Notes: a model not told the origin generated them from the letters alone. A DNA stretch of 64,000 nt from an uncultured Verrucomicrobiae bacterium (GCA_963756875.1 CAVWPA010000003.1:608001-672000), one strand, 5' to 3'. Shown: positions 1-20,913, numbered from the stretch's first letter. Numbers and translations: made by a program.

Positions 1-12
1 AGATTTTCTGAA

Positions 13-49
13 TTGAGCGTTGGGCGTTGGACGTTCGGCGTTGGACGTT
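13..49. repeat. Heptamer tandem repeat (TTGAGCG/TTGGGCG/TTGGACG/TTCGGCG)
   Basis: Five degenerate 7-bp units; reverse complement of the AACGCCG-type runs near 18763, 20851 and 55269. Confidence 0.8.
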
Positions 50-73
50 TGCTTTCAAAGGAGCGCAATTAAC

Positions 74-1027: not shown

Positions 1028-1182
1028 GATCGAACGTCAATCCGACTCTCAACAACCTGTCGCGCCGGAGCCAGAAAGGCGGATCAACTATCAACACTCA
1101 ACTTTCAGACTGACCGCATGAAGTGACTGGGGAGCGGTCGCCGCGGCGACCTGTCTTGGCGTCCTCGCCGAACACCCTCTTC

Positions 1183-1206
1183 TGTAGCGGCAGCCGTGTC
1201 GGCTGC
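1183..1206 (+). repeat. GTAG-type REP copy
   Basis: TGTAGCGGCAGCCGTGTCGGCTGC, 1 mismatch to 61840-61863; a further inverted copy lies at 19008-19031. Confidence 0.75.
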
Positions 1207-1282
1207 AACCGTACCAGCCTAAAAGTCTGTTAACGGATAACAATTAACTTCTAACCGATAACTCCGCGCAGGCCCCCGCGGT

Positions 1283-2839
1283 TCAGACTCCGGGAACGAC
1301 CGTAGTCTCTTCCATTTCCTCAGGCGTTATCTCGGCCTTGTCGGTGATCAGCTTGCGCAGGAACGGAATGAGCAGGACGAGCGCGATGCCGACCACGAGG
1401 CTGCCCGCGCCGAGTGCGCCGAAGAGCTTCGCATACTCAGGGTTGGTCACGATCGCCGTGGTGCCCTTCGGCTCGGGGATCATGCCCGAGAAGTCGCCCG
1501 CGAAGAGTGACGCGAGGCCTGTCATCAGCATCCAGCTGCCCATCATTATCCCCTGATACTGCTTCGGCGCGAGCTTGCCGATCATCGCGTATCCGATCGG
1601 AGAGATGAGCAACTCGCCGATGCTCTGCAGCACATAACTCATGAACAACCACACGAACGCGCTCTTGCCGTCAACGCCGGCCAGCTTGATGCCTACCGGG
1701 AGAATGAGAAAGCCCAGCGCCATCAAGGTCAGCGACGTTGCAAACTGCTTCGGGATGTCGATCCTCCATCCGCGCGCGCGCATCCGGGTAAACAACGCCG
1801 CGAGAATTGGTCCGCCGACCACGATGCAGACGGTGTTGATGTTCTGAATCCACTGCGGCTGAATTCTTACCTTGCCGATCATCAGGTTGACGTTGTGGAC
1901 CGCGAACAGCATCAGGCCGCTCGGTGCCATTTGATACAGCGACCAGAACGCCAGCGAGCCGGTGGTCAGAATCAGATACGCCGTCATGTTCCGCCGCTCT
2001 CGGCGATCCGGGTGGCGGACCGTGAGATAGATGAGCGTCAGCGCGACCGCGCCGCAGATCCCCTTGACGAGCGTCTCGGTCCCGCCGGGCCTCTGGAGCA
2101 AGAACCACACGACCGGTATGAGACCGAGGAGAATGCCGATGCCGGCGAGCAGGCGCAGCCGGAATTGCTTCGACGTCGCCTCGAGTAGTGGCGTGTTGCG
2201 GTCGGCCAGCGTCTTCCACGAAAACAGGGCGAGGATGATGGAGACGAAGTTGCCGAGCGTCGCGAAGATGAAAAGGCTTGCGTAGCTCTCGGTCCCCTGG
2301 AAGTAACCGGCGACAGCGAACCCGACGAAGAACCCGACGTTCATGCCGGCGTAGTTCCAGAGGAAAGCACCTTCGCGGCGCGGGTCCTCCGAGGTAAAGC
2401 GCTGCGTCAGCATCATGTTGATGCAGGTGACGTTCAGGCCGCTGCCGGTGAGGAAAAAGGCGAGGCCGATGTAGAACATCGCCGCCGTGCCGACCGCAAT
2501 GCACCCGCAACCGATGACCTGCACCGCCATGCCCCCGACGAAGAGATTCCGGTTCGAGAGAAAACGCCCGCCCAGGTAACCGCCGAAGAGATGCAGACCG
2601 TAGTTGAAAGCGCCGAACACGCCCATCAACGCGGTTGCCAGCTTCACCGAGAGCTGCAGATGCTTCGTCGCGTAGAGGACCAGCGTCGAATAAAGGACGG
2701 CGAAGCCGAGCGTCGCGAAGATCTGAATAAAGAACAGCACAGCCGTTCCCTCCGGAGCCGCGGCGAACCGGCGTTTGATAAAATTGACGGGGTTCGTCCG
2801 CCCGCGAACCTCGCCCTCCGGGTGACCTTTAGTTGTCAT
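1283..2839 (-). CDS. POT/PTR family proton-dependent oligopeptide transporter (MFS)
   Basis: Many TM segments, DPRREGAF..YAGMNVG and SIGELLISPIG motifs. Confidence 0.9.
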   Translation of the reverse strand: MTTKGHPEGEVRGRTNPVNFIKRRFAAAPEGTAVLFFIQIFATLGFAVLYSTLVLYATKHLQLSVKLATALMGVFGAFNYGLHLFGGYLGGRFLSNRNLFVGGMAVQVIGCGCIAVGTAAMFYIGLAFFLTGSGLNVTCINMMLTQRFTSEDPRREGAFLWNYAGMNVGFFVGFAVAGYFQGTESYASLFIFATLGNFVSIILALFSWKTLADRNTPLLEATSKQFRLRLLAGIGILLGLIPVVWFLLQRPGGTETLVKGICGAVALTLIYLTVRHPDRRERRNMTAYLILTTGSLAFWSLYQMAPSGLMLFAVHNVNLMIGKVRIQPQWIQNINTVCIVVGGPILAALFTRMRARGWRIDIPKQFATSLTLMALGFLILPVGIKLAGVDGKSAFVWLFMSYVLQSIGELLISPIGYAMIGKLAPKQYQGIMMGSWMLMTGLASLFAGDFSGMIPEPKGTTAIVTNPEYAKLFGALGAGSLVVGIALVLLIPFLRKLITDKAEITPEEMEETTVVPGV

Positions 2840-3042
2840 CTACCCGAGCGCTCCCGCTTGAACTCGTGTTCATCCGGCCGCCATTTGGACTGCGACCCCG
2901 AACAATGTCAAGACCTCCGACGGAACGTGTCGACTGGTAAGCTCACTCGATCCTCGATTCCGTAGAGGGCGTGGCTCAAAGTTGAGGGTTGTCGTTTTTT
3001 TTGCCATTAGTCGCCGAGAGCTGTCTTGACTGTAATTATCAC

Positions 3043-3082
3043 TTGATATGTGAACGCTGTTTAGTATAATGAACAGCGTTTA
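3043..3082 (+). promoter_or_regulatory. Sigma70 promoter overlapped by two TetR-type operator boxes
   Basis: TTGATA (3043)-16 bp-TATAAT (3065); TGAACgctGTTTA (3051-3063) and TGAACagcGTTTA (3070-3082) flank the -10. Confidence 0.75.
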
Positions 3083-3705
3083 TGAAAGCGAGAGCGAGAC
3101 GACAACGTTACCGGCAGGAGATGCGCTCTGAAATCCTGAACGCAGCCCGGGAAATCTTCGTGCGGAGTGGCCTCGAAGGATTTTCCATGCGAACCCTCGC
3201 CCGCTCCGTCGGCTATTCGCCCGCCGCGATTTATCTGCACTTTAAGAGCAAAGAAGAGCTCTTCGACATCCTGGTCGAGGAAAGCTTCGTCTCATTGTAC
3301 GATGCGCTTGGTATCTTGCTAAAAGAACGAGGCAAGGATCCGGTGCGGCAATTGAAGCGCGGGTTGCGGCTCTATGTGGAATGGGGATTGAAACAACCCA
3401 GCGCCTACCAAATCGCTTTCATCATCCGAAATCCTGCGAAGAAGCCGTACCGGACTCATCGCGCATTCGATCTTGCCCGCGCCCTGGTGAAACTTTGCCT
3501 GGGCAGATCCAAGGCAGCCGAGCACGAATTGGAATTGCGTACCCAGGCGCTGTGGGCCGCCACGCACGGCATCACCTCTCTTCTCATACAGAGATCCTCT
3601 TTTCCCTGGGTCTCGAAGCAACGCCTGATCGATCAGGTAATCGACAGCGCCGTGCAAGGGGCAATCGCTCCAATGAAGCGACGAAAATTAAACGGGAAAA
3701 ATTAG
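3082..3705 (+). CDS. TetR/AcrR family transcriptional regulator
   Basis: N-terminal HTH ILNAAREIF..SMRTLA..VGYSPAAIYLHFKSKEEL; C-terminal WAATHG. Confidence 0.92.
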   Translation: MKARARRQRYRQEMRSEILNAAREIFVRSGLEGFSMRTLARSVGYSPAAIYLHFKSKEELFDILVEESFVSLYDALGILLKERGKDPVRQLKRGLRLYVEWGLKQPSAYQIAFIIRNPAKKPYRTHRAFDLARALVKLCLGRSKAAEHELELRTQALWAATHGITSLLIQRSSFPWVSKQRLIDQVIDSAVQGAIAPMKRRKLNGKN

Positions 3706-3715
3706 GAGGGCACCT

Positions 3716-5239
3716 ATGCAAACAAAATTCGAAACCCCTGCAAAAAAATCCGAGGCAGCGCGAGCTGGATCCTGGATTCCTTTAGTTGTCGCGATTGTTC
3801 TTCTGCCATTTGCCAACGGAGCAAACGCCATCGCGCTGGCCGCATGGTTGGCGCCGCTCTTTTTGCTGCGATTTGCTCGAAGGCAGAGGATCATTGTCGG
3901 TATTCCCTTTGTTCTGGCCGTGCAAGTTGCCGCGCTCGCGTTCCAGTATCGCGGAATGGTGCCGTTTCCGACGGCTCTCTACGTGGCCGTGATGGTCTTT
4001 TATGGGCTGTGTTTCACTCTGCCCTATCTGGGCGACCGTCTCCTGGCGCGCCGGCTCTCCGTCTTTTCGGGCACGCTCGTTTTCCCGCTGATCTGGACAA
4101 CAATAGAATATCTCCTGTCTTTTGGACCGTTCGGAAGCTGGTTTGCGACGGCCTATTCGCAGTACGGTAACCTGGCACTGCTCCAAATGCTTTCGGTCAC
4201 CGGCCTCTGGGGTGTCACATTCCTGATCGGATGGACGGCCGCGACGGGAAATGCGTTGTGGGAAGAGTGGGCCACTGCGCGACGCGTCCCGCGGGTTGCG
4301 ATATGGTGCGCTTTGCTTGTCATCATCACGATGCTCGCGGGTGGTGCGCGTCTTGCCCTCTTCCCACCTGGAGGAGAAACCGTCCGGGTGGCCACCCTTT
4401 CACGGATCGAGGGCAAATTGCATCCTGATCCGAAAGTCGTCGGGCGCATGTTCCACCACGAACCACTCACCCCTGAAGAAATTGCGACGATTCGGCAAAA
4501 CTCCGCTGCGATTGACAACGACTTGTTGAAGCGAAGCGAGGGCGAAGCAAAAGCTGGGGCCCGCATCATTTTCTGGGGTGAGGCGAATGCACCGGTGCTG
4601 AAGGAGGATGAGAACGATCTGATCCGGCGTGGCGGGATCCTGGCGAAGCGCGATGGCGTGTATCTCGGAATAACGCTTGCCAGCTGGCATCTGGAAACAA
4701 CGCCGTCTCTCGAAAACAAGATCGTTCTCATTCAACCCGATGGCAGTCCTGCTTGGGAATTTTTTAAAGCCCATCCGGTGCCAGGTGGGGAAGCGGCGAT
4801 CTCCATTCGGGGCGATGGAAAGTTACGCGCACTTGATACTCCCTACGGGCGGCTGAGTTCGGTAATCTGTTTCGACGCCGATTTTCCTCAGCTCCTCGGA
4901 CAGGCGGGACGACTGGGAACCGACATAATGCTCGATCCGTCTAACGATTGGAAAGCGATCGACCCGTGGCATACGAGGATGGCTAGTTTTCGAGCAATCG
5001 AACAGGGGTTCAACCTCGTCCGGCACACGAGCCAGGGTCTCTCTGCCGCTTTCGACTACCAAGGTCGACAGCTGGCATCGATGGATCACTACCACACCAC
5101 CGATCACGTCCTCGTAGCACAGGTTCCAACTCGCGGAACGCGGACTCTCTACGCGCTGATTGGAGACTGGTTTGCCTGGGCTTGCCTGGTTGGGCTAACA
5201 GGTCTGGTCATCTTGGGAGCAAAAAATCGCGCTCTCTGA
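3716..5239 (+). CDS. Apolipoprotein N-acyltransferase-like carbon-nitrogen hydrolase
   Basis: N-terminal TM bundle; nitrilase E-K-C triad (WGEAN, FFKAHPVPGGE, ICFDADFP); RBS AGGAGG. Confidence 0.85.
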   Translation: MQTKFETPAKKSEAARAGSWIPLVVAIVLLPFANGANAIALAAWLAPLFLLRFARRQRIIVGIPFVLAVQVAALAFQYRGMVPFPTALYVAVMVFYGLCFTLPYLGDRLLARRLSVFSGTLVFPLIWTTIEYLLSFGPFGSWFATAYSQYGNLALLQMLSVTGLWGVTFLIGWTAATGNALWEEWATARRVPRVAIWCALLVIITMLAGGARLALFPPGGETVRVATLSRIEGKLHPDPKVVGRMFHHEPLTPEEIATIRQNSAAIDNDLLKRSEGEAKAGARIIFWGEANAPVLKEDENDLIRRGGILAKRDGVYLGITLASWHLETTPSLENKIVLIQPDGSPAWEFFKAHPVPGGEAAISIRGDGKLRALDTPYGRLSSVICFDADFPQLLGQAGRLGTDIMLDPSNDWKAIDPWHTRMASFRAIEQGFNLVRHTSQGLSAAFDYQGRQLASMDHYHTTDHVLVAQVPTRGTRTLYALIGDWFAWACLVGLTGLVILGAKNRAL

Positions 5240-5309
5240 CCTCCGACCGCTGACCTCTGCTTCCGCTCGCCACCTCATGCAATGTCAACCCGCTTTTGGT
5301 TCCAAGCCG

Positions 5310-6333
5310 TTAGACCACGACTTGCGCGTCGGAGGCTTGAAAGGTGGATGAAGGAACGTGCGAGTTGCAGTGGGTCACAATTCCGCACCATTTCATCGCG
5401 CAAATGATCCAATAAGGAAGTGTCTACCTCCCACCACCGCAGACCACTACGCGCGAGACGCGGATAATTGTGATGATTTTCGTGCCATTCACCGGCGAGG
5501 AGTCCGTAAAAGATTTGATTCACCGGATGTCCGTGTTTGCCGGTGGCGCCATGCATCGCGCTGTGACCGCGGTAATTAAAATCACGCAGGAGAAACACAC
5601 AGAAAAACACGCCCGAAATCCACGCCCATACTCCCCACCATCCGGCCACGGCGAAGGCAAGCCCGCCCCAGAATAAATGCGCGAACACGGCGCGAGCGAG
5701 ATAGATCCAGACGTTTTCGATCGAACCCGTGCGTCGATATTGTTCGTGCGAACTGCTGATGATCCCGATGTGTCCAAGGCTTTTCGCCAGCCGGTCAAAC
5801 TCGGCCGCGGTGAGGTTGCGATTTGTTTTCTGTTGCGTTTCGGTCGCGAGATAACTGCCGAGCCATCCGAGGTGCGGCCCGTACGGATCGCCCGGATCAT
5901 CCGGTTTCGCGTGATGAAGTCGATGAGGGATCACGTAGCTCTCCTCGCGAAAAGGAATCGGGTTCGTCCACAGGAAAAATCGCGCGCACCAGATGCTGCG
6001 GAACTTGAATGCCTGATGCGAACAGAAGCGGTGAAACCAAAGCGTATTGTAAATGGTTCCGACGAAGCTCGAGATCAGCAGGACCGCAGCGATGGAAGCG
6101 ATGGAAAAATGAGAAATAATTAGAAACCAGACAAACACCCCGAAACTCGCCAGGTGATAAAGCAGGTAGAGCGCGGGAATCAGGCGCGTTCGATCTTTCC
6201 AAAAACTGATCGCATCGAGCAACTCAGCCAGCACCTGCCGGGTCGTGGGCGTTTTGGGTGCCGGGCCTGGATGCCCGTAGGTCGGTTCGTCCAGGATCGC
6301 CTGTCGGTAAGTGGGATGTGCGTTCTCGCTCAA
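5310..6333 (-). CDS. Acyl-CoA/acyl-lipid desaturase, apparent +1 frameshift near 5421
   Basis: His boxes HRFCSH, HRLHH and HENHH; removing one base after WWEVD gives LPYWIICAMKWCGIV, the expected C-terminus, with stop at 5310. Confidence 0.85.
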
Positions 6334-6791
6334 GATCGGGCCGCGTCAGCTAATAATAGACCACGTATGGAATGCGGTGGCCAGCCTCACCGGGGCTGCA
6401 GATGCTTCGTCGCTTACGGGATCAGCGTTGAGTAAAGAACGGCGAAACCTCCGTCCTCTGACCTCGCTCCCTGCTCCCTGCTCCGTGCTCCCGCCCGCCG
6501 CCCCCAGCAATGTCAGGCGGTTCGCAGGGTGCGAACTTTACGGCAGCGTTGGCAAGGAGCCAACTTTACGGCTGGACGGGGACGTGCTGGGGAGGGAGGC
6601 CGGGCACCGAATTGGGGAATTGCGGGAGGCCGCGAGCATTGTTTGCGAGCCGGTCTAGGGAAGCCGGCGACGCGGTTTGGGAAACCGAGCCGCTCTCTGT
6701 CCTCCGACCTCCTTGGGATCGAATGAAATGGGGTCGTGTCCCTCCTTCGCTTCCGGCACCTTTTTTGCTCGATTTTCCGCTGTAAAAAGCG

Positions 6792-6819
6792 CTGACACGG
6801 TCTACAAATTGCCTATACT
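6792..6819 (+). promoter_or_regulatory. Putative sigma70 promoter
   Basis: CTGACA-16 bp-TATACT just upstream of ATG 6831. Confidence 0.55.
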
Positions 6820-6830
6820 ATTAATGAGAC

Positions 6831-7031
6831 ATGTCGAATAAACAGTTTTGGACGAAAACAAACGCAGCCGTGCTAAAGGCAGTCCGATTATCGAAAGGAA
6901 AGGGCGACAGCGCTCTCCGACGGGACTGGAAATTGAAGCAGGTTTCGAGAAGTGGATCGCATTCGCACGTCAGCATCTCGGACGTTCGTACTCTTGGGAC
7001 GGGCCTTTCACGAACGATCTCGACCGAGTAA
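6831..7031 (+). CDS. Small basic ORF overlapping the kinase gene, possible partner or antitoxin
   Basis: ATG directly downstream of the promoter; 66 aa; no recognisable motif. Confidence 0.3.
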   Translation: MSNKQFWTKTNAAVLKAVRLSKGKGDSALRRDWKLKQVSRSGSHSHVSISDVRTLGTGLSRTISTE

Positions 7032-7576
7032 ACGCCATCGATACTGAAACGGCGTTACTCCTCAAGATAGCGCCAGACTGGAGCGCGGAGGCATTCTACT
7101 CAGCTTGCACGGCGGCCAATCCCGACGTGACGAAAGGGTCGGAGCATTATGTAACGCGCTATCAAGACGGACTGTCTCCGCGCGTAGTGAAAGCTTCCAT
7201 CCCAGGGAAGTATGGGCGGCACGAGTATTCTCCGAGTCTGTACCTAAACTCTTGGCGACTGTTTCAACGATTCTTGCCGGCACTTGCGATTCGCGTCCAT
7301 GGCGTCCTCGTGCAGCCGGTAGCAGGGAAAGATACACCGTTGCCAAGCGTAGTCACCAGCATGCAGTACATCGAGGGCGGTCATCCGAAACCCCAGCAGA
7401 TTGCGGCGTACATGAAATCCCGCGGGTGGTTGGAATACACCGACCAAAGTGAAACGCAAGATTACGTTCAGAGACAGTCGCGTCAGATCATAAGGGATGC
7501 GCACCCGGGCAACTGGATTAAGCAGCGCGGAACTGCTGAGTTGATGCCAGTCGACATCAGCATCGAGCAGTTTTGA
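6848..7576 (+). CDS. Atypical Ser/Thr/Tyr kinase, polyvalent-protein (Kinase-PolyVal-like) type
   Basis: GSEHYV loop, VVK lysine, [14 protein letters not shown], catalytic RDAHPGN, PVD; start uncertain. Confidence 0.7.
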
Positions 7577-7595
7577 GGCTCAATGTCCACCACGT

Positions 7596-7708
<113 letters not shown>

Positions 7709-7734
7709 CTTCCGTCCATTCGTCAGCGGAGACT

Positions 7735-7762
7735 TGTCAAGATTTGTTGACTGACCCCAATT
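7735..7762 (+). repeat. Left inverted repeat of the MTase-ParB-HD cassette
   Basis: TGTCAAGATTTGTTGACTGACCCCAATT; its reverse complement matches 11667-11695 with 1 mismatch and 1 extra base. Confidence 0.88.
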
Positions 7763-7789
7763 CCAATTCATTTCGCTCCCATTCGGCAT

Positions 7790-9374
7790 CTAAAGCCCAG
7801 CAGAACTGACGTAATCGATCGCGAACTTTGTATCGGACGCCCGATTGATCCACTGCAAGACGCTTTCGTATCTCCGCAATTTTGGCCGGCCAGTACCGCA
7901 GTGGTACGCGGGGCAAACACACTGTAGCGGTGACAGCCCCTGTAACAGAATTGACGGCAATTCCCTCGAGAACGCCGGCTCGAGGAAATTCAGAGCACGT
8001 AATGTCGCGCCGGTCATCTTGTAACGCGTCAGTAAACATCAGGGTCGCCGCGTAGGGCAACTGTTCAAACGGGATAGATGGGATGCCGTTGCTGCACAGG
8101 GTGTCGCGCGTGTGTTGATCGTGAAACATCATACTCAGTGCGGCGATGATGCATGCCTTGAGTGAAATCTCTGGATCATAAAGCTCGTGCTTGGCTGCTC
8201 TGTCGCGGCGACACCGAGTGATGAGATACAGGCCAGAAATCAAACTATGACCACACCGCCGGCCGTCAAAATATGCTCTTCGGAGCGCAGGGTCGAAACT
8301 AGCGACCACATCATCACCAAAGCCGGCCGGTCGCCACGCGTCGCTGACCCGCGTGAAAAGCTTGACCAAGTCTTCTCTCGCCTCGAGGAACTCGGTGTGC
8401 CACGCGTTGTTAATCGCGTTGAGAACTATGGATGGAACGTCATTTGACTGGTCGCTTCTGTTCTGGCTGCCGATGCTAAAAGCGAAAGTGCGCCAAAAAT
8501 CTTCACCCATGTAACCTGGGTCGTGGAACATGCACGTCAACGACCACAAGCTCTCCCACAAATGCAGCTTAGAAATCCGTTTTGGATCAGCAATATAGCG
8601 GTCGGGCAGTTCGGTTCGGGCTCGATGCTCGAGCATGCCGCCGAGCACTAGGAATCCGTTGAGTAGATTGTTGAAAGTGTGGAAAAAATGATCTCGTGCG
8701 CCTTCGTTTGCGCCAGCACGTTCCCAATCTTGAAGAGTCTGAAACAAGCCGATAGGAAAGAACAAGCGGCGATCTCCGCTTCGGATCTCCCTGGCGAGCG
8801 TGATTAGCAGATCAGATTCATCGTCGTAGGAAGGTAGAGACCGCAGTAGCGGAGTGTAGCGACGGTCTAACAGCTCAAATCGGCGCATTAAATAGGGGCT
8901 GAATCCCCGAACGTTTAACAATGCCTTACGCGTTGCCGCAGGGATGTGGCCACGTTCCAAAGCACCCCGCCGTAACTTGGGCATCGCGTAATCCGGCGGC
9001 CAAACGCGAAGCAGACCCTCCGAGGTCTCGAGAAGCAGTCCGAAGCCGAGCTTGTAACATTCCTCTGCGACCGCTTCCGCGATGTCGGTTGCGGAGACTT
9101 CGGGTGAATCCGTCGCGACGATTACTGCCGAAATCCGTTTCGCCGCTGTGAGTTGCTTGTGCGCACTCCGAACCCAATCAGGAATGCGCGGGAGACCCAG
9201 TGCATAAACAAGGTGATAGTGTCGGCCGTCCGCCAAACAAAGGTCTGGGCCGAAGCTCAATTTTTTCTTTAGCAGCCGCTTTTTATTGATCTCCCCAAAC
9301 GAAATCTCGCGAAGAACCCTGTCGCGACGCAAAGCGGCCTTTATTCCTTGCGCTGTAGCGCGAGTAAATCGCAT
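7790..9374 (-). CDS. HD-superfamily phosphohydrolase with a possible degenerate REase-fold N-terminal domain; apparent frameshift near 7871
   Basis: [41 protein letters not shown]; removing one A gives the C-terminus [28 protein letters not shown] (the uncorrected ORF runs into the IR to 7737). Confidence 0.7.
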
Positions 9375-9383
9375 GAAATCGAT

Positions 9384-10457
9384 TTAGAAGGTTTCTCGCG
9401 AAGCGCGCGCTGCCCGAATGAGCTCGTCTAAGGCCCGGCGAAACTTATCAATCATCTTCTTCTTGGCCGCCGACGAGCCCTTGGCTTCGGTAATGTATCT
9501 CGACTCGTATTGGTCGAGGGTACGCGTAAGCGCGACAATCGCTGCTATGACGCGCTGTGGTTTTGCTGGGCGCTCTTCCAGAAGCTCTGGTAACTGGGTC
9601 GTAATTTCCGCCTTAGCGTCTTCGAATTGAAAATCCTTTCTATTAACCAAATCTTTGAAAAGATTGAGCGCGGTCTTCTTCTTCGAGCCGTCCAGCGCTC
9701 GAGAGAACAGCGGCGACACGCTACGTATCTGTTCTCTACTAGTGAGTGTGCCGGTCTCTATTCCGCCAATAGTCTTGTCCAACGGTACTCGCCGCACCTG
9801 ATTCGCAGTTGTGTCGACGGCCTTGTTGCCATTGAAGTAGTTTGGGAAGGCTTCGACTGCAGGCTCGATAATACTCGCCTCTATGGCCAAGATGTACGAA
9901 TAAACATTCCGCGATGGCTCGCGTTCATCGAAACGAAAGATTTCATCCTTCAATTGCTTCGGCCAGGAGAGCACGTGTACTTTATCTTTTGCCGTAACCA
10001 GTGACATGTTCGTCTCTTCCGCGAGCTTGGCTGCCCATTCCGCTTTTTGTGCAAGCCTGAGGCCTCTATCAAGCTCGGGATAGGCTTCCACGAGCGAACG
10101 ACACTGCGCCATCGGCCCCCACTGCTCGCGGGTCATATGCAGATGAAACATTAGCTTGCGAACATCCGCCGTTACTCCACGCCCCTCCAGAATGTGAACA
10201 GGCACCATGTCCAACGCTAGCTCGCGAGCTGCCCAATACCGTCTCTCCCCATCAACCAGCTCATATTTGATCTCACCAGCTGTCCTGGACAGATCGCGAA
10301 TAACCAAAGGGACGAGGATGCCAACACGATTGATCGAGGCAACGAGTCGCTCGAAACTTTCGTTCCGGTCAATCGCCCCCCTAGGATTGTGGTCGCTAGG
10401 CCTGATTTCTTTCAGGCGGATGCGTTTTACGCGACTTGCGAATTGAGAAGTATCCAT
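9384..10457 (-). CDS. ParB/Srx N-terminal domain protein
   Basis: NPRG, LVASI..VGILVPLVIR, YELVDGERRYWA (intact arginine patch); helical C-terminus; no parA nearby. Confidence 0.88.
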   Translation of the reverse strand: MDTSQFASRVKRIRLKEIRPSDHNPRGAIDRNESFERLVASINRVGILVPLVIRDLSRTAGEIKYELVDGERRYWAARELALDMVPVHILEGRGVTADVRKLMFHLHMTREQWGPMAQCRSLVEAYPELDRGLRLAQKAEWAAKLAEETNMSLVTAKDKVHVLSWPKQLKDEIFRFDEREPSRNVYSYILAIEASIIEPAVEAFPNYFNGNKAVDTTANQVRRVPLDKTIGGIETGTLTSREQIRSVSPLFSRALDGSKKKTALNLFKDLVNRKDFQFEDAKAEITTQLPELLEERPAKPQRVIAAIVALTRTLDQYESRYITEAKGSSAAKKKMIDKFRRALDELIRAARASRETF

Positions 10458-10463
10458 AAGCAG

Positions 10464-11606
10464 TTACCGCTTCGTTGTCATAATCAGGATAGTTTCTGAA
10501 GTGCTGCCTCGGCACGCGCGCCTTACTCGGCGTGCAGTGGGAATTGTGTCCTTGTAGGTTGCACGCACCTGGTATCCACCGATCTCATTCACCGCGATTT
10601 GAGCGAGCGCATGTGCCAAGGGCTCCCCATAGGCAGTGCTCAATACGTCACCGACCACCAACACGCATCGTCCTCCGGGTTTCAAAATTTGCCGCCACAG
10701 AGTCAAACACTTGCGCATGAGCTCGAAAAACTGTGTTTCGGTGGGAGAGACCTGTGCATCAAGTTCGTCTGGATCGTCGACACCGAGAAACCAGAGGCGC
10801 ATGCGATTGTCGCGGCCGTAGTCGAGCTGGCGCATATACGGCGGACTAGTGATTATCGCGTCGACCGGATCCGCGGGGCGAAATAGCTCTGCGTTCCTCA
10901 AAAAGCATTGCCGCTGGATCGAAAAGTCCACGTTTGGGATGCGTTTGAGCGCACGCCCCACCTTCGCTTCGAGACGGCCTGCAACCGCGCGGTACCGATA
11001 CAACTCGGGGAATACGTCGACCGGAAAGCGACTGAGTCGCAAGTAGGGAACAGCGTGACTGCTTGGAAACGACAGAAAACCCGGCCTCTGATGATGCAGA
11101 ATACCGAGAAGGCACGCTAACAAGAATCGTTCGCTGCGCCGCGCTAGCACGGCGCGCCAAGCGAGAATCTCTTGCAATGTTTTCCGATGGAAAAACGCAC
11201 GTATCCATTTCGGCACTACAGATAAATCAATCGATGGCATCGTCCGCACGGCGGCTTCGGCGGCACGCTGCAAACGGTGCAACGCGTCGTCTTGCGAAAT
11301 CAATGGGAAGAGTTTTGCGCGAGTGAGAAGGGATGCGTATGGACTTAGATCATTTGCGATGACGTTGCGGCCGGCAATCCAAGACTCCAACGCGATGGTT
11401 CCGCAACCAGCGAATGGATCGTAGACGCAGTTTCCCGCTCTGGTGCAATGGCGAACGAGAGCATTCGCCATCGTTGATTTAATCTTTCCTATGTATGGCG
11501 ACAACTGGTGGAGAGTCGTCTCCTGATGCACTGCGCTCCCGGCCCAGTCGCAAGTCACACCATTCAGTCGCAGATGGCTATTCCGATTCATGACTACGGC
11601 GGACAT
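10464..11606 (-). CDS. Site-specific DNA amino-methyltransferase, likely N4-cytosine, alpha-type motif order
   Basis: H...PYIGK, motif I DPFAGCGT, NDLSPYA, catalytic IITSPPY, LKPGG. Confidence 0.88.
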   Translation of the reverse strand: MSAVVMNRNSHLRLNGVTCDWAGSAVHQETTLHQLSPYIGKIKSTMANALVRHCTRAGNCVYDPFAGCGTIALESWIAGRNVIANDLSPYASLLTRAKLFPLISQDDALHRLQRAAEAAVRTMPSIDLSVVPKWIRAFFHRKTLQEILAWRAVLARRSERFLLACLLGILHHQRPGFLSFPSSHAVPYLRLSRFPVDVFPELYRYRAVAGRLEAKVGRALKRIPNVDFSIQRQCFLRNAELFRPADPVDAIITSPPYMRQLDYGRDNRMRLWFLGVDDPDELDAQVSPTETQFFELMRKCLTLWRQILKPGGRCVLVVGDVLSTAYGEPLAHALAQIAVNEIGGYQVRATYKDTIPTARRVRRACRGSTSETILIMTTKR

Positions 11607-11666
11607 CCCGGCACAGTATCAACGCGAGATAGATTCGTCGACTTCTTAAAGAAAACGGGGTCAGAC

Positions 11667-11695
11667 AATTGGGGTTCAGGCAACAAATCTTGACA
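11667..11695 (-). repeat. Right inverted repeat of the MTase-ParB-HD cassette
   Basis: AATTGGGGTTCAGGCAACAAATCTTGACA; a partial extra GGGGTCAG lies at 11657. Confidence 0.88.
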
Positions 11696-11908
11696 CCGTG
11701 GGTTCCTGAAGCTTAGCACTCTATCGGCCGCTCACTGATTCACCTTGTCCCCGACAATCATCCGGAGAGCTTCTGGATTTGGCTGACGGAAGCGGCTCCA
11801 GTAAGGATCCAAGGAGCGATCGCCAGAATCTTATCTGATTTTTCCAAATTGTGTTTGGCGCAGCCGCCTTCGTTCAGACTACGGCCAGCCAGGGAGCAAT
11901 CGCGGGGA

Positions 11909-13898
11909 TCAAATCTGGGGAATTCCGAGTCCTCTAAGATAATTGAATGTCGAATCATAAAAAGTAGGGGATCGCGTCGGATCAGCGACTTCGCCAGGCG
12001 GCACGAACACGACCATTCCTTGGCGCGCACGTGTAAGCAAGACGCGGTAAGCATTGCGGAGATACACCCGGTTGTCGGCATTCGCGATGTTGCACCAACG
12101 ATCCCCTCGGAAATCGTGATAATTCCAGTCCGCACCGTTAAAGCGAAAGTCACCGCACCACGCGACGCAGACCCAATCAAGTTCCAATCCTTGCACTTGA
12201 AATTCAGTCGCAGCGTCTTCGAGATAATAACTCGACCGCGTGTCGTCTCTGCCATTCAAAAAATAGTGTACCGGGTCAACTGAGACGCGGATGTCGATTG
12301 CGTGCGGCTTCAGTCGCATCGCTTTTGATGAGGCGACCAAGCCGTAGCGCTCCGTTCCTCGCGCGCGATCGCGAACCCATTGTTTCGCCGCATTCAGATC
12401 ACGCGTGATTGCGATCGGATATCTCGCGGCCAATTCTCCGAATGCGCGCTTCGCCTGTTCTTCGTCGCAATCGAGAAGCGCTTTGACGAATGCAGAAACA
12501 TTTTCCGCGCGAAACGATCGCATGGAGACTGCGAGATGCAGCGCGTCGTCGAACTTGGTGCGCGGACGCTCGCGCACGATCTCCAGGCGCTCGACCGGTC
12601 GCATACTCGCTGTCTGTGAGCCGTGACGAAATGAACATCTCCCATGCAGGAAAACTTCGATTCACTGCTTGGAGCCACGCATCAATACCCGGCTTCACCT
12701 GTATTAATCTCCTGGCCGCCACCAACAAGGCATACGATTACCGCCCAATCCTTGTGTCTATCCATGTATGAGATCAGAAACTCTGGCTCCGAATGAGAGA
12801 ACCCAGCGGCCGTTTCTTCGCGCAGCATGAAGTTGGCGGTCTGCCTAAGATTCCAAGCGCGTTGCGCCTCATCGAAAATAACAACGTGCTCATCCGGCGG
12901 ACCGAGATCGATCAGCGCATCGTCGCGGAAATGGTGAACGTTTTGAATAAACGACTTGATCGCGTTCTCCAACTTTTCCTTTTCGCGCCTTCTCGCCGTG
13001 TTGCTTCCGACGCGCGACTTCGTCACGCGTTAGCGCTTCACGAAGAACGGCAACCAATGGGCCATTGCCAGACAGAAAAACAGCATGAGTTGGCTCGATC
13101 CTCTTCACGCCGCGTCGCAAGATTCAGCCCGACTAAAGTTTTTCCTGCTCCGGGCACGCCAGTCATAAACAAATTCGCTTTAGCGCCCTTTAGCATGAGC
13201 TTCATCGACGAGTTCTTCAATTCGTCGCGAGGTAACGTGCAGATTCTGCGCGCCGGCGTCGAACCGCGCGATCGCTTCGACCGAATGTGCGCATACAGCG
13301 CGCGCGCAGCTTCGATGATCGTGGGCGTCGGATGATACGACGCTCGCGACCACGCTTCTGCATTCGACGGCGATGCCACTAATTCTCGCTAAGCGCAGCG
13401 TCGAGCGCGCTGCGAAAGTGTTCGGGATCGACGACAATCGGCCGGTAAAGTTTGTCGGCGTCTGGCATCAACTCGATCTGAGGACATTCGTTGCTTCTGT
13501 TGGGTCAGAATGGGAATGATTGAAGCATCGTGACTTGCCTCATGAAAATTCTTTAGGTCCAGCCCGTAATCCCAAACCTGATCGATCGCCGCACGATCAA
13601 ACGTTTTCTCGCCGACTTTGAATTCGATTGCGAAGACCACTGGCCCAATCACAAGAACGACGTCGATCCGCCGTCCCATTCGCGGAATGTTGAACTCGAA
13701 GAAGATCGAACCCGCAAAGGCCAATGAGTTGCGGGCGAAGAAACTCGATCTGCGCGAGCCACGCGTCAGCGTTGCGTTGGAATCAAAGTCGAACTCGCAG
13801 AATTAGTTGTAAGCTGGCCCAGACAATTTCGGGGGTCGCGTGGAGCAAAGTCTGCAGTCGAAGCGCCGTACCAGAATCGCAAGAGACGAAGACCGCAT
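11909..13898 (-). pseudogene. DUF2075 (Schlafen group 3-like) helicase with N-terminal PD-(D/E)XK-like domain, multiply frameshifted
   Basis: Fragments in several frames: [62 protein letters not shown]; real decay cannot be told from sequencing error. Confidence 0.8.
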
Positions 13899-14009
13899 CA
13901 ATGTGGTGGTGATTTGTCCTTCCACATCTAAATGCTAGCCACCGCGCTGCGATTCGACGAGAAAAGACTTGGCATTCGCCGCGAACCTGGCCAGGTAATT
14001 ATGCCCATC

Positions 14010-14251
14010 ATGGGCAAAGATTTCATTTCAAACTGGACAGTGTGGATCTCGGACAGGTGCTCGACGGGTTGCGATGTCGGCAACAATCGTGGGCGAATAC
14101 TGCGATTTACCTGCGTGACGAATATTTCCCTGATGATTCGTTCGTATGCGAAGAATGCAGTGACACCAATGAAGCGCAAAAGATCGCAAACATGTATCAG
14201 CGGATCATTACGACAATTGAAAATCAGATCGCCCAACAACGTGGTCAATAG
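14010..14251 (+). CDS. Small acidic hypothetical protein with CEEC motif; apparent -1 error in a T run near 14026
   Basis: Restoring one T gives MGKDFIFKLDSVDLGQVLDGLRCR...FVCEECSD...ENQIAQQRGQ*. Confidence 0.55.
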
Positions 14252-14390
14252 AACCGCGTTCGATCCCGCTGATGTACGTGCGGTCGAGCTCCGCTTTTTC
14301 CGCCAGAGCTTCCTGCGACAGCCCGGCCGCGTCACGGCGGCGGCGAACGTTTAATCCGAATCGGGTGAGAGTGTGGTGTCGATGCGACAT
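14208..14390 (-). pseudogene. Truncated XRE HTH protein, R-M controller (C protein)-like
   Basis: FGLNVRRRR..GLSQEALAEKAELDRTYISGIERG; homology stops near 14252, at the stop codon of the convergent ORF. Confidence 0.75.
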
Positions 14391-14407
14391 GCACACACTT
14401 CACCTGA

Positions 14408-14442
14408 ATGTTGCCTTTCAATCCACGGACTATAAGTCACAT
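14408..14442 (-). promoter_or_regulatory. C-box operator of an R-M controller gene
   Basis: Minus strand ATGTGACTTATAGTCCGTGGATTGAAAGGCAACAT: GACT-TAT-AGTC box, 17 nt upstream of the HTH ATG. Confidence 0.8.
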
Positions 14443-14761
14443 CAATATCGCTCGAAGACGGAGCGACAAAGCTTGTTGCCCCTGCGGTTCTTTGCCGCCC
14501 CGAAGTTTATTCCTTTCTGGAGCGCAGACTGACTGAACAGTGACAAGTGACCCGCCACGGCGGGTTCGTCTGAACGGGAACATGTGACCCGCCTACGCGA
14601 ATACTACGGCGCGGCAAGCGAGTGGCGAGAGGGCACATAGCTCATGATGTCGTCGATTTCCACAATATTGATCTTGAATTTCGCCTATATCGGGGAGGTC
14701 GAGCCCAGTCAGGCCGATTTATTCCTTGCATGCATGGCACGCACCGGGCTTACTTAGGGGC

Positions 14762-14929
14762 ATGGTCGCCATAATCGCCAAGCGTAGCGTTGCAGAAGTC
14801 CGAAAGGAAGTCCGAGCCATCAGGAAAGCCGGGGACGAAATCAACAAGTCGGCGAAATCAGCGCGCGCATTTCTGCGCAAAAACGGCTTCATTACCAAGG
14901 ACAATAAAGTCAGCAGGCAATATCGGTAG
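14762..14929 (+). CDS. Small basic protein, putative antitoxin
   Basis: 55 aa, ends 8 bp before the ART-like gene; SARAFLRKNGFITKDNKVSRQYR. Confidence 0.6.
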   Translation: MVAIIAKRSVAEVRKEVRAIRKAGDEINKSAKSARAFLRKNGFITKDNKVSRQYR

Positions 14930-14937
14930 CCCGGTCA

Positions 14938-15534
14938 ATGTTTGCCACATCGTTCGTTCTTGGCTATCACGGCTGCGAACGAAAAGTTGGTGAGACCATT
15001 CTGGCCGGCAAAGACCACGTCACGCTTAGCGAGAACGTCTACGATTGGCTCGGCCACGGCGCGTATTTTTGGGAGAACAGCGCAAAACGCGCGAAGGATT
15101 GGGCCGACTTTCTAACGAAACACCCGCCGGAACCGGATAAGAAAATAACCGATCCTTTCGTCGTCGGTGCGATCATTGATCTCGGCGATTGTCTCGATCT
15201 GACCGACGCAGGCTCACTGGAGATCATTCGCGCTGGTTACGATGAGTTCCGCCGAACCATGGAGCAGGCTGGTGCTCCCATGCCGAAAAATGAGCCGGCA
15301 CTCCGCGGCGACGTCGATCTTGTGAAACGCCACCTCGATTGTGCTGTAGTTAATTTTGTCCATCTGCTGCGTGAACGAGAGAAGAATCCGTTTGACACAG
15401 TCCGCGGAATTTTCACCGAAGGTGGTGAGCTCTATCCCGGCGCAAAGATCATGGCTAAAACGCATGTGCAGGTATGCGTTCGCAATCCCAAGAAGAGCAT
15501 CAAAGGCTATTTTCGCCCTCTGGCCCAGAACTAG
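14938..15534 (+). CDS. ADP-ribosyltransferase-fold-like protein, putative toxin
   Basis: GYHG, DWLGHGAYFWE..RA..WA, terminal HVQVCVRN; H-Y-Q pattern of the HYE ART fold (inference). Confidence 0.6.
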   Translation: MFATSFVLGYHGCERKVGETILAGKDHVTLSENVYDWLGHGAYFWENSAKRAKDWADFLTKHPPEPDKKITDPFVVGAIIDLGDCLDLTDAGSLEIIRAGYDEFRRTMEQAGAPMPKNEPALRGDVDLVKRHLDCAVVNFVHLLREREKNPFDTVRGIFTEGGELYPGAKIMAKTHVQVCVRNPKKSIKGYFRPLAQN

Positions 15535-15650
15535 CCAACCGACCGCCAGGTCATAAGAAGTTGGGTCAAATCTCAACTCCGAAAGCATTCGCGAGCAGGT
15601 TATTTAACATTCTTGTTCCCGGATCCTTGTAGCTTTGACCAACCGGTTCG

Positions 15651-17552
15651 TTAGGGAGACGGGATGTTCTGCTGCAGGAGCTCGAGTTCGTGCCAGCGCG
15701 CGTAGAGGTGCGCGACTTTGTCGCGCGCGGTTTTCAGTTGAGTTTCTAAATCGAAGATCTCCGCGCGCGGGTTCGCGTAGAAATCCGGCGCGGCAAATGC
15801 CGCTTCCAGGTCCGATACTTCGCGCTCCGCGGCAAGAATGTTCGCCTCCATCGATTCCCATTCGCGCTCTTCTTTCCATTTGAGCCTGGCCGGTTTCCCT
15901 TTGCCCCGCCTAGGCGGGGCGGCGACGACAACTGGCGGGCGATTTGAATCGCGAGTCGGAGCGAGCAGGGCTCGTCGTTCCAGGTAGTAATCGTAGTTCC
16001 CGACGCTGTACGCGACGCGGCCTTCCCCTTCGAAAGCGAGGATCGAGGTGCACACGCGATTCAGGAAATAGCGATCGTGACTGACCACGATGACGCAGCC
16101 GCCAAAGGCGACGAGCGCTTCCTCGAGCAAGCGCAACGTGCCGAGATCGAGATCGTTGGTCGGTTCGTCGAGCATCAAAACGTTGCCGCCGCGCTTCAGG
16201 ATTTTGGCGAGCAGCACCCTGCTGCGTTCGCCACCGCTGAGCTGCGAGATCCTGGTGTTGATCCGGTCTTCGCTGAAAAGAAATCGCCGCAGATAGGCGC
16301 GCAAGGTGATGCTTTGCTCGCCAAGGGTAACGTGTTCACCGCCGGTGCCGACTTCTTCCCAAACCGTTTTCGCGTCGTTGAGCAGAAGCCGATTTTGATC
16401 GACGTAATTGATCTCGGTCCGAGCGCCGATCTCCACTTCACCACTCGCCACGGGCAGTTCCTGCAGAATGACTTTAAGGAGCGAGGATTTGCCGAGTCCG
16501 TTACGGCCGACAACACCCAGGCGTTCGCCGGCTGTGAGATTGAGATTCACGTGCTCAAAGAGGGTGCGTCCACCCAGCTCCACGCTGACGTCGGTCAATT
16601 CGATGATGCGATTCGCAAGCTTCGGCGGCGTGGGGATAATCAACTCGACGTCGAGCTCCGCTTCCGGCGCTTCCTGCGCAGCCATCTCGAAATAACGTTC
16701 CACGCGGTCCACCGATTTCGTCCGGCGCGCCCGGGGCGCTTTTCTGACCCATTGCAGTTCCCGTTTTAAAAACTTCTGCCGTTTATGTTCCTGCATTTCC
16801 TCCACCGCTTTTCGCTGGACGCGCGCGAGCAGGTAATCGGTGTAGTTGCCGTCGTAACTGGTGAACTCGCCGCGCGACAGCTCGACGATCCGCGTGGCCA
16901 CCCGATCGAGAAAATAGCGATCGTGCGTGACGAACAAACAGGTGCCGGCATAACGAGCGAGAAAATCCTCCAGCCATTCGATCGAGCCGGTATCGAGATG
17001 GTTGGTCGGTTCGTCGAGAATCAGAAAATCGGGACGGGCGAGCAGCGCCCGGCAAAGTGCGACGCGGCGTTTTTCCCCGCCGGAAAGCGTGCCCACGACG
17101 CGATCCGGTTCCGGCGCGTGCAGATTCGTGATGAGCGACTTGATCCGGTGTTCCAAATTCCAACCGTCGGCGTGGATAATCTTGTCGAGGAGCGTGGCGC
17201 TGAGCGGGCTGTCACCCGGGACGCGTTCGTATTCGGCAATGAGGTCGAGAATCCGCTGTGCGCCGCTGAGAATGTTGGCATGGACGGTGGCTGCATCGTC
17301 CAGGCCGGAAACTTGCGGCATATAGCCGGTGACGAGATCGCGCCGGCATGAGAATTCACCGGAATCGGGTTGGGCCACGCCGGCCGCGATCTGGAGGAAG
17401 GTCGATTTGCCAGAGCCGTTGCGGCCGACGAGCCCAATGTGTTCGCCCTCCATGAAGGCAATCGTCGCGCCGTTGAGAACGACCTGATGGCCGTATTTGA
17501 CGGAAAGGTTGTTCGCGCTCGCGATGACTGTGCCTGCCGAGGTTTCTGCCAT
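15651..17552 (-). CDS. uup: ABC-F family ATPase (Uup-like)
   Basis: Two ABC domains (GRNGSGKST, LSGGE, LDEPTN), no TM segments, C-terminal coiled coil. Confidence 0.88.
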   Translation of the reverse strand: MAETSAGTVIASANNLSVKYGHQVVLNGATIAFMEGEHIGLVGRNGSGKSTFLQIAAGVAQPDSGEFSCRRDLVTGYMPQVSGLDDAATVHANILSGAQRILDLIAEYERVPGDSPLSATLLDKIIHADGWNLEHRIKSLITNLHAPEPDRVVGTLSGGEKRRVALCRALLARPDFLILDEPTNHLDTGSIEWLEDFLARYAGTCLFVTHDRYFLDRVATRIVELSRGEFTSYDGNYTDYLLARVQRKAVEEMQEHKRQKFLKRELQWVRKAPRARRTKSVDRVERYFEMAAQEAPEAELDVELIIPTPPKLANRIIELTDVSVELGGRTLFEHVNLNLTAGERLGVVGRNGLGKSSLLKVILQELPVASGEVEIGARTEINYVDQNRLLLNDAKTVWEEVGTGGEHVTLGEQSITLRAYLRRFLFSEDRINTRISQLSGGERSRVLLAKILKRGGNVLMLDEPTNDLDLGTLRLLEEALVAFGGCVIVVSHDRYFLNRVCTSILAFEGEGRVAYSVGNYDYYLERRALLAPTRDSNRPPVVVAAPPRRGKGKPARLKWKEEREWESMEANILAAEREVSDLEAAFAAPDFYANPRAEIFDLETQLKTARDKVAHLYARWHELELLQQNIPSP

Positions 17553-17630
17553 GGGGAACGTTGAACGTCGGGTGAGTAACCCGCCTCCGCAAGGCTACTC
17601 CGAAAGCGGGGGAGGGAATGGAAAGAATTC

Positions 17631-17654
17631 GGGGTCAAATCTAAATATTTGACA
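17631..17654 (+). repeat. Solo GGGGTCA-N10-YTTGACA element, same architecture as the cassette IRs
   Basis: GGGGTCAAATCTAAATATTTGACA. Confidence 0.55.
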
Positions 17655-17701
17655 TTCTTAGTTGCGGTTCCTTTCCCGCTTCGAAGTTCATAAGCGCAGC
17701 G

Positions 17702-18444
17702 TCACCAGGGAATTACTTTTCGATCTCTCCAGAACTTGCCTGTTTCACTCTGCGGTGCTTCGCAAGCCAACCACACGATTCCCGAGGCCCCTTCTGCAAC
17801 CGAACGCGTCGCATTAGCTCCACCCATATCGGTTCTCACCCAGCCGGGACAGACGGAGTTCACCGCGAACTTCGGTAGCGCCGCGGCCAGTTGCGATGTG
17901 ACGCCGTTCAGGGTTGTCTTCGAAATGCAGTAGGCGGGGCCCATCCGTCGGCGCCGTCGGCAAGTTGGCCGCCGCCGCTCGATACATTTACGATCCGCGG
18001 TTGGTCGCTCTTCTCTAGCAACGGCACGAACGCCTGCGCCACCAAAAGCGGCCCCAAGGAGTTTGTCCGCAGCGTCGTTTCAAATGTCTCGGACGAAATC
18101 TTGAGCACCTCTTTATCTTCATCCAGGAGGATGCCGGCATTGTTAACCAACGTGTCGAGATGATCTGCCTGGCGCGCGAATTCTTCCGCTGCGCGTTGGA
18201 TACTGTCGATGTCGGTGATGTCGATCTGTAAGAAGGTAACAGTACCGTCGTTTTTTTCTTCAATCGCCCGGCCGGCTTCGGCCTCGCCTTCCTTTCGAAG
18301 TTTCTCCGCAGCCGCCAGTCCGGCATCGGACTTGCGCGCGCCGATGAAGACGTGGAAATTTCGCCGCGCGAGCTGGCGGGCGACTTCAAAGCCGATCCCT
18401 TTGTTGGCGCCGGTGACCAGCGCGATGCGTTGATTTCTGTTCAT
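17702..18444 (-). CDS. SDR family oxidoreductase, apparent frameshift near 17935
   Basis: TGANKGIG, NNAG, VSSGGG; YCISK and CPGWVRTDMGG continue in another frame. Confidence 0.88.
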
Positions 18445-18627
18445 CTGGAAACTTACCGCAGGTTACGCGGATGAAAACGGATGCTGTTCGTCACGTTGTT
18501 GCAGCTTAAAGTTCGTGATCGCGAGGGCGCGATCACCAGCACGCGAGGCGCGTGCGCTCCCCGGCCCGATCCCTTTATTTGCGCCGGTGACGAGCGCGAT
18601 CCTTCTTTTCGTATGGTTCATAATAGC

Positions 18628-19060
18628 AATGCTGGATACTGGATTCTAGATGCTGGATACCTGATTGGGAAACGAGGATCGCAGGGCAAGGGGCGGCGCG
18701 ACGCGCCGTTATCAGTTAATTGTTATTGGTTGTCAGGGAAGGACGAAGGATGGAGCAAAAGCAAACGCCGAACGCTCAACGCCGAACGCCCAACGTCGAA
18801 GTCAGAAGTCGGAAGTCAGAGGAAGCGAAGAGCCAAGAGGTAAGGGCAAAGGGGTAAGGGCTAAGCGGACGGAGCAGAAGGCGGACGGGGAAAACGCCGA
18901 ACGCCCAACGTCGAACGCCGAATGTCGAAGTCAGAAGTCGGAAGTCAGGGGAGGCGAAGAGGTAAGGGCGAAGGGGTAAGGGCAAAGAGGTAAGGGCTAA
19001 GGGTGGCGCACCCGACACGTCTGCCGCTACAGAAGGCAGAAAACGCCGAACGCCGAAAGC
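18628..19060. repeat. Mosaic of heptamer runs, including two related blocks of about 110-130 bp
   Basis: ATGCTGG, AACGCCG, GAAGTCA and GTAAGGG units; block 18763-18865 repeated at 18892-19000. Confidence 0.8.
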
Positions 19061-20826: not shown

Positions 20827-20913
20827 AGAGGACAGAGGACAGAGGACAGAAAACGCCGAACGCTCAACGCCGAACGTCCAACGCCGAACAGCGAATAACT
20901 GACAACAGATAAC
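20827..20913. repeat. Heptamer runs (AGGACAG, AACGCCG)
   Basis: Directly visible. Confidence 0.8.

Follow-up and report, generated by a model that had tools for sequence, protein, structure and literature searches.

Do inverted repeats that tightly enclose a set of bacterial genes mark the ends of a mobile unit, or can they belong to the place where the genes settled? The question arises at a locus within a 64,000-nucleotide stretch of the genome of an uncultured Verrucomicrobiae bacterium (GCA_963756875.1, CAVWPA010000003.1:608001-672000; the whole stretch is called the window here, and positions given without a contig label are counted from its first letter). Between 7735 and 11695, an operon of three genes, encoding a DNA methyltransferase, a ParB_N-domain protein and a conserved hypothetical protein that we call U545, is bracketed by inverted repeats of 28-29 bp. 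The initial annotation interpreted this arrangement as a non-autonomous cargo cassette moved in trans, possibly by a transposase of the RAYT/Y1 (HUH) type. Our comparative analysis favors a different history: we consider it likely that the operon landed between two resident, solo copies of a terminal inverted repeat (TIR) in a variable defense hot spot, and that the two repeat arms are not the ends of a cassette.

The arms themselves, claimed from inspection of the sequence, are borne out by a repeat search and by shuffling. The left arm, TGTCAAGATTTGTTGACTGACCCCAATT, occupies 7735-7762 and the right arm, AATTGGGGTTCAGGCAACAAATCTTGACA, occupies 11667-11695. The search recovered 7735-7758 and 11672-11695 as an inverted pair of 24 nt, 92% complementary and spaced by 3913 nt; when the adjoining AATT is included, the match extends over 28/29 nt, with one mismatch and one indel. 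A non-overlapping inverted pair with at least 22 of 24 positions matched within 100-5000 bp appeared in none of 300 dinucleotide shuffles of the region 5000-14000, compared with the one observed. We refer to the core of the repeat, GGGGTCAGTCAACAAATCTTGACA, as R and to its complement as R'. In the left arm, R lies on the minus strand (7758-7735), with AATT extending it to 7762, and together with its conserved flanks forms a unit that spans 7718..7786 (minus strand). The right arm (11667..11695, plus strand) consists of AATT followed by R with two mismatches and a 1-nt insertion. In both arms the GGGG head of the repeat points toward the operon. The distances from arms to genes, 27 bp from 7762 to the frameshift-corrected stop of the last gene (native stop at 7790-7792) and 60 bp from the first start (11606) to 11667, are exactly those first annotated.

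To what kind of element does R belong? We scored R at no more than 3 mismatches in 61 genomes, namely that of the window (G000; 2.69 Mb in 3 contigs, 87.59% complete) and 60 relatives of its family and order, all of them metagenome-assembled genomes, including two unpublished ones (G002 and G007) that are counted in the tallies only. R is present in 15 of the 61 genomes, and a reversed-pattern control gave 0 hits in all 61. The boundaries of the 24-mer are sharp: conservation ends there, and the flanks vary between genomes. Copy numbers reach 12-16 in four genomes (G012, G038, G042 and G050). A search for the exact motif with two degenerate positions in public genomes, one genome per species, returned 118 stretches with 150 copies, and 77 of the 80 stretches listed (of 118) are labelled Verrucomicrobia, Verrucomicrobiae, Chthoniobacterales or their subgroups.

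In two relatives, G038 and G021, R and R' stand about 1.1 kb apart, and the gene between them has the features typical of a Y1/HUH transposase; such genes, bracketed by R with the GGGG heads outward, are about 1.0-1.1 kb long. Their translations contain NHFHF or NHYHL, which we take to be the HUH motif, and Y-x-H-L-N-P-V, which presumably carries the catalytic tyrosine. The protein scores 42.7 and 40.2 bits against Pfam Y1_Tnp (cut-off 23), 61.9 bits against NCBIfam REP_Tyr_transpos, below the 80-bit equivalog cut-off, and 20.6 bits against NCBIfam transpos_IS200, below the cut-off of 55. Its length is 305-381 aa (228 aa at the frameshifted G021 locus), including a C-terminal extension of about 200 aa. 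With the G038 transposase as query, matches at E<=1e-20 were found in 24 of the 61 genomes; among the 15 genomes that carry R, 10 have a match and five do not (G000, G004, G008, G012 and G032). R stands on both sides of a transposase match in six genomes (G038, G050, G036, G042, G057 and G021). More generally, 18 of the 20 transposase loci examined have flanking inverted repeats of 20-55 nt that start with GGGGTC[AG]G and mostly end with TTGACA, with a middle part that depends on the lineage; no flanking inverted repeats were found at the remaining two (L097 and L098). All 18 pairs face GGGG-outward. The transposase is multi-copy in several genomes, with 2-7 matches, up to 7 in G021, and internal stops in several.

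Copies of R are also found away from any transposase gene, as solo, dimer and clustered repeats, both in the relatives and in the public stretches. A single R folds at -2.2 kcal/mol (z -0.14), no better than shuffles, and the same is true of R', whereas an R doublet of G042 folds at -34.2 kcal/mol (z -9.8). A REP-type hairpin identity for R was rejected on the folding of the single units. R has the character of a transposon end rather than of a REP palindrome, and its sequence context identifies it, in our assessment, as the terminal inverted repeat of a RAYT-like Y1/HUH element of the already described TIRtron/TIRYT kind. The annotated guess of a RAYT/Y1 (HUH) partner was, in this respect, right, given that the same 24-mer brackets a Y1_Tnp gene in relatives; a RAYT-like gene flanked by the repeat was looked for in G000 as well, and there none was found. 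As a separate observation, one Chthoniobacteraceae-labelled public genome (L150, L155, L177, L202, L207, L222 and others) contains many R-R' doublets with spacers of 3-14 bp, which make near-perfect 50-bp palindromes.

Comparison with known systems places the family more closely. Members of the IS200/IS605 family have subterminal hairpins and a transposase of about 130-150 aa, and are not known to carry terminal inverted repeats. They share the Y1_Tnp (HUH) catalytic domain with the elements described here, which differ in their inverted ends of 24-28 bp, in proteins of 305-381 aa and in a transpos_IS200 score below the cut-off. The REP and REPIN-RAYT systems, reportedly treated by Bertels and Rainey in 2011, are similar in that a Y1 transposase gene is associated with short intergenic repeats, which flank it in inverted orientation and form long hairpins as doublets. 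REP units are described as short, imperfectly palindromic sequences tagged with GTAG (or CGTC) (PMC3733652); a single R, in contrast, is no palindrome, has GGGG as its head and carries neither tag. RAYTs are single-copy and vertically inherited, according to Bertels et al. 2017 (PMC5581495), whereas the transposase found here is multi-copy, often broken and below the REP_Tyr_transpos cut-off. The closest likeness is to TIRtrons, which are described as RAYT-like genes that are flanked by terminal inverted repeats and encode TIRYTs, with many of the repeats sharing GGGGWSAS (Di Nocera, De Gregorio & Rocco 2013, BMC Genomics 14:522, PMC3733652). The same text reports moderately abundant solo, dimer and clustered copies of TIR repeats elsewhere, and some genomes with repeats but without the gene. 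The present family agrees with this account in having a RAYT-like Y1/HUH gene between inverted repeats, as well as solo, dimer and clustered copies, and in its head motif, which fits GGGGWSAS in the left arm as GGGGTCAG, with one inserted T in the right arm (GGGGTTCAG). It differs in that the examples given in that text come from other phyla, and in that our window holds orphan copies only. A further difference is that the 24-mer is nearly unchanged across families of one verrucomicrobial order, and the proteins that it flanks are 44-50% identical to the G038 query.

The polarity of the window pair is the reverse of that of a TIRtron. The two arms face each other GGGG-in, so the ends that point outward in a mobile unit here face the operon. 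Among adjacent R copies in the 118 public stretches, 32 close pairs comprise 18 GGGG-out pairs, 14 direct pairs and no GGGG-in pair. In the list of R copies from the 61 genomes, GGGG-in pairs occur only from about 0.9 kb up, the shortest spanning 0.94 kb (G036:C3), and by a hand count of the same list they account for 4 of the 8 pairs of neighboring copies separated by 1.5-10 kb. GGGG-in pairs at 0.9 kb or more are as expected for the DNA that lies between two units.

In G000 itself, R occurs at 4 sites (no more than 3 mismatches), which make up two close inverted pairs, the window pair and one at C2:160956/161916; with 4 copies in 2.69 Mb, the motif is not abundant. The G038 transposase query found no match in G000 at E<=1e-20. 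A tblastn search of G000 with 20 TIRYT proteins produced as its sole find a relic of 35 C-terminal residues at C3:843244-843348, and nothing near either R pair and no remnants beside the arms. Six other Y1_Tnp genes of G000 are of a different type, about 160 aa long and without R or such flanking inverted repeats.

The most telling line of evidence comes from the same locus in other genera, where each arm appears, from its flanks and position, to be a feature of the chromosomal backbone that is present without the operon. We searched positions 1-20000 of the window against 36 relatives at the DNA level. The frame of the locus is conserved and consists of gene A (99-1023), gene B (1282-2785), an ABC-F gene (15651-17552), an SDR gene and a PLD gene (from 19585), with variable content in between. 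In G008, a left arm lies 180 bp after gene B, and window positions 7718-7763 are 96% identical to G008:C3:1205225-1205270; 17 bp are common on one side of the repeat and about 20 bp beyond the GGGG head, up to TCGGC at about 7786, after which the DNA is unrelated and there is no operon. G020 has a degenerate copy of the left arm in a matching position, 1.7 kb ahead of its PDC-S41 gene and again without the operon; here too the similarity reaches TCGGC at about 7786. G019:C6 has a copy 243 bp after its B gene, where the alignment shows no common flanks. On the TTGACA side of the left arm, a heptamer array is found in three of these genomes, with a different unit in each: CTTTCTA in G000 (tandem (CTTTCTA)n, 7597..7715), CTTCTGA in G008 (L078, about 5125-5160) and CTCCCAA in G020 (L138, about 5380-5425).

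The right arm has a comparable record. The backbone DNA on its TTGACA side (11696..11908) is kept together with R in G012:C2, where genes for a BglII-like endonuclease and an MT-A70 methylase, and not PDC-S41, follow the right arm and about 190 bp of the window flank, and it is kept without R in G010:C124. The arms, with their own flanks, thus occur at the syntenic locus in the absence of the operon, and would therefore be older there than the operon. The locus collects defense genes in several genera, and these genes differ: PDC-S41 in G001 and G020, the BglII/MT-A70 pair in G012. In the PDC-S41 loci of G001, G020, G003, G048 and G041, DNA in common with the window was found only from 11912 rightwards, and no relative of the left-flank genes was detected. 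Compared with defense-island hot spots in general, the interval between genes A/B and ABC-F/PLD is alike in holding different defense-type genes in each genus; it differs in that its left-hand boundary is set not by a core gene's end but by a conserved unit, about 70 bp long, that bears the repeat.

The operon, for its part, appears foreign to the genome and independent of the repeat. Its first gene (10464..11606, minus strand) encodes a DNA methyltransferase (PF01555 N6_N4_Mtase, E 2.1e-12; PADLOC MTase_II, E 9e-25), the second (9384..10457, minus strand) a ParB_N-domain protein (PF02195, E 5.5e-14, 52.4 bits against a cut-off of 26.3), and the third (7737..9374, minus strand) U545, a conserved hypothetical protein of about 528 aa with H..HD..D-like motifs, read here as a 545-aa frame with no Pfam family. 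U545 has 120 homologues, mostly of 520-550 aa (typically 527-545), and its profile gave 0 matches at E<=1 among solved structures. Among the genomes searched, U545 was found in G000 only (1 of 301 of the order and 1 of 401 of the phylum), and the methylase-ParB-U545 operon would therefore be a foreign arrival in this genome, to judge from this distribution. Among 40 metagenome loci with U545 relatives, 19 have the order methylase-ParB-U545, 10 have ParB-U545, 4 have U545 alone on short contigs and 7 are weak hits; R, at no more than 5 mismatches, was found at none of the 40, so that the homologous operons recovered lack the repeats, an outcome that the initial annotation had named as one that would count against a cassette. 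The closest U545 relative among the metagenome loci with DNA is 55% identical.

In the history that we favor, a TIRtron family active in ancestors of the lineage would have left solo end-repeats in intergenic DNA, two of them at this hot spot, the TIR probably being spread by the Y1 transposase on single-stranded DNA, as the enzyme family suggests. The G000 lineage would then have lost the cognate enzyme, of which a relic remained; no matching transposase was found in G000, and the repeat copies would therefore be fossils. The methylase-ParB_N-U545 operon, acquired horizontally, would later have entered between the arms, its ends coming to lie about 25-60 bp from the GGGG heads, and the inverted symmetry would be a by-product of two independent old repeat copies that happen to face each other.

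Several observations weigh against this history. The arms are taken to be orthologous on the strength of flanks that are short (17-190 bp) and of synteny, in metagenome-assembled genomes. The left breakpoint at about 7786 is common to G000, G008 and G020, with different DNA beyond it in each, and this common breakpoint, combined with insert ends near both GGGG heads, might indicate an involvement of the repeat heads in DNA joining. None of the sampled genomes has both arms around another cargo or abutting each other, and the pre-insertion state was not seen among them. The nearest U545 relatives (83% and 81% identity) sit on short contigs outside the set of 40 loci and might carry R. G000 has only 4 copies of the repeat, yet these form two tight inverted pairs, a non-random arrangement that retention at the locus explains only in part. 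Finally, with an assembly that is 87.59% complete, a transposase could lie in the missing part.

The alternatives have to be judged on the same evidence. The common breakpoint bears on the view that the repeats belong to the site as such: the GGGG heads of resident TIRs would be preferred joining points, the head-to-head pair would mark a place where defense cargo is inserted and exchanged, and the joining itself would be the work of an ancestral TIRYT-type enzyme or of repeat-focused recombination. This view is consistent with the fact that G000, G008 and G020 have the left arm and about 24 bp past its head in common and then diverge at the same point, that the operon fills the interval nearly exactly, and that the defense-type genes vary by genome; moreover, stuttered partial heads at the GGGG end, seen in many genomes, suggest breakage and joining there. 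However, neither a genome with both arms and other cargo nor an empty head-to-head pair was found, and the common breakpoint may reflect no more than conservation of a unit of about 70 bp amid DNA that is not conserved. Two indels in G036 also speak against it. G036:C3 (L072, 2631-5000) carries a 2.37-kb block composed of R, a TIRYT gene, R', a PEP-CTERM-like gene and R, where its congener G001 (C14) has 81 bp of other DNA; this indel has its boundaries not at the repeats but 259 bp ahead of them and 32 bp past them, and a second one, in G036:C4, takes in two repeats, its ends falling elsewhere. We regard a site of this kind as unlikely, and would put slightly lower still the more specific claim that the head-to-head pair is a conserved capture slot, in which foreign operons were joined at a fixed 25-60 bp from the GGGG heads and TIRtron ends served as attachment sites, not as a vehicle.

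The same block in G036 shows that DNA beside such elements comes and goes, which might be taken to favor the cassette of the initial annotation, R'-operon-R moved in trans by a RAYT/TIRYT-type Y1 transposase. So might the facts that the repeats genuinely terminate a Y1 transposase element in relatives, that the operon is tightly bracketed and foreign to the phylum sample, and that a GGGG-out pair on G000:C2 encloses 936 bp without a transposase gene. Against this stand the opposite polarity of the window pair (none of the 18 pairs that flank a transposase and none of the 32 close pairs is GGGG-in), the finding of only a relic and no cognate transposase in the 87.59% complete assembly of G000, the absence of R from all 40 homologous operon loci, and the occurrence of both arms in other genera, where they keep their flanks and the operon is missing. 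Moreover, an empty site or a second copy of the unit was sought in the genomes searched, and neither was found. On balance, and with three of the initial annotation's own criteria already going against it, movement as a cassette seems improbable. We give still less credit to the possibility that the operon and both repeats arrived together from an R-rich donor of the same order, with the repeats as passengers. G000 has few copies of R (4) where some relatives have many (12-16), and between about 7.2 and 15.6 kb the GC content is slightly below that of the surroundings, without a step at the arms; but the outer flanks are common to G008 and G012 at the syntenic locus, which places the arms in the backbone, and a search of 300 other genomes of the order yielded no U545. 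Least credible of all is a switch in which recombination between the 28-bp inverted repeats would flip the operon: only the inverted geometry speaks for it, no recombinase gene lies nearby, the promoter would flip together with the genes, to no obvious change, and inverted joints are absent from the one metagenome run available, which covers little of the stretch. Insertion of the operon between two older resident repeats thus remains the history that we prefer.

One thing that follows from this locus is that neat inverted repeats around a defense operon need not constitute a transposon. A verrucomicrobial (Chthoniobacterales-labelled) family is added to the little-studied TIRtron/TIRYT elements, which, as found, matters little. 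The near-invariant end repeat of 24 nt, set against transposases that are about 45-50% identical, points to what may be tight protein-DNA recognition. The same repeat-bearing unit bounds a variable defense locus in several genera, and if it is true that the repeat heads are joining sites, relics of a Y1 transposase would be linked to the assembly of defense islands.

Some features of the arms and the genes around them deserve a brief description. The partial repeat head GGGGTCAGACAA (11657..11668, plus strand) stands directly before the right arm, and stuttered partial heads of this type at the GGGG end are common across other genomes. A promoter or terminator role of the arms was considered and rejected: no sigma-70-like site was predicted in 7500-12000, and no terminator-like site at the arms. 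The U545 gene has a one-base frameshift near codon 500 (7860-7880), so that the 545-aa frame departs from its homologues at about residue 500; the homologous C-terminus lies in another frame, up to the native stop, and the last 27 or so residues are replaced. The frameshift could be a real defect or an assembly error. To the right of the operon, a decayed gene for a PDC-S41 / Schlafen-group-3 helicase (11909..13715, minus strand; PDC-S41, E 1.8e-97, profile positions 431-652 of 657) is broken into three frames and, from 11912, is about 75% identical in DNA to intact or nearly intact genes of G020 and G001. The BglII-like restriction endonuclease and MT-A70 methylase genes of G012:C2 lie at L073 6985-8329, beside the orthologue of the right arm.

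A unit with the same architecture as the arms had been annotated at 17631-17654 and is indeed present. This 'class B' unit, GGGGTCAAATCTAAATATTTGACA (17631..17654, plus strand), represents another variant of this type of end repeat; it is present in 11 of the 61 genomes (control: 0 hits), has a folding energy of -4.4 kcal/mol (z -3.55), and in G021:C1 (718036-718059) abuts a transposase match (717069-718049).

Further traces of these and other elements are scattered through G000 and its relatives. The GGGG-outward R pair on C2 (160956-161939; L001, 10957-11940), without any transposase trace, could be a transposase-less derivative of the element; the frames in its 936-bp interior are all short, a lipoprotein-like signal being seen in one and a weak DnaJ-like_C11_C hit in another, and this interior has no DNA match in the 60 relatives beyond the repeats themselves. 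The 35-aa TIRYT relic on C3, which is 83% identical to the G036:C4 protein, adjoins a variant end repeat, GGGGTCAGAGCTTACTATCGAC (C3:843244-843361), of which two further copies are present elsewhere on C3. At C2:23183-27811, a Y1_Tnp match lies inside an open frame of 1542 aa whose start resembles a methionine-synthase-type protein, and a transposase-like module seems to be nested in frame within a housekeeping gene. One soil-metagenome run (X1) contains 8% of the sampled words and gave a few short contigs, identical at 10231-10747 and 14502-14755, and no joints; neither arm is covered. Runs of CTTTCTA similar to the array at 7597-7715 are found in four further places in G000. Other interspersed repeats of 40-57 bp, unrelated to R, occupy 18508-18564, 18759-18807, 18890-18935, 19445-19491, 20848-20888 and 5-55 of the window; they belong to abundant repeat families of G000 itself, with dozens of copies on all three contigs, and are also present in relatives.

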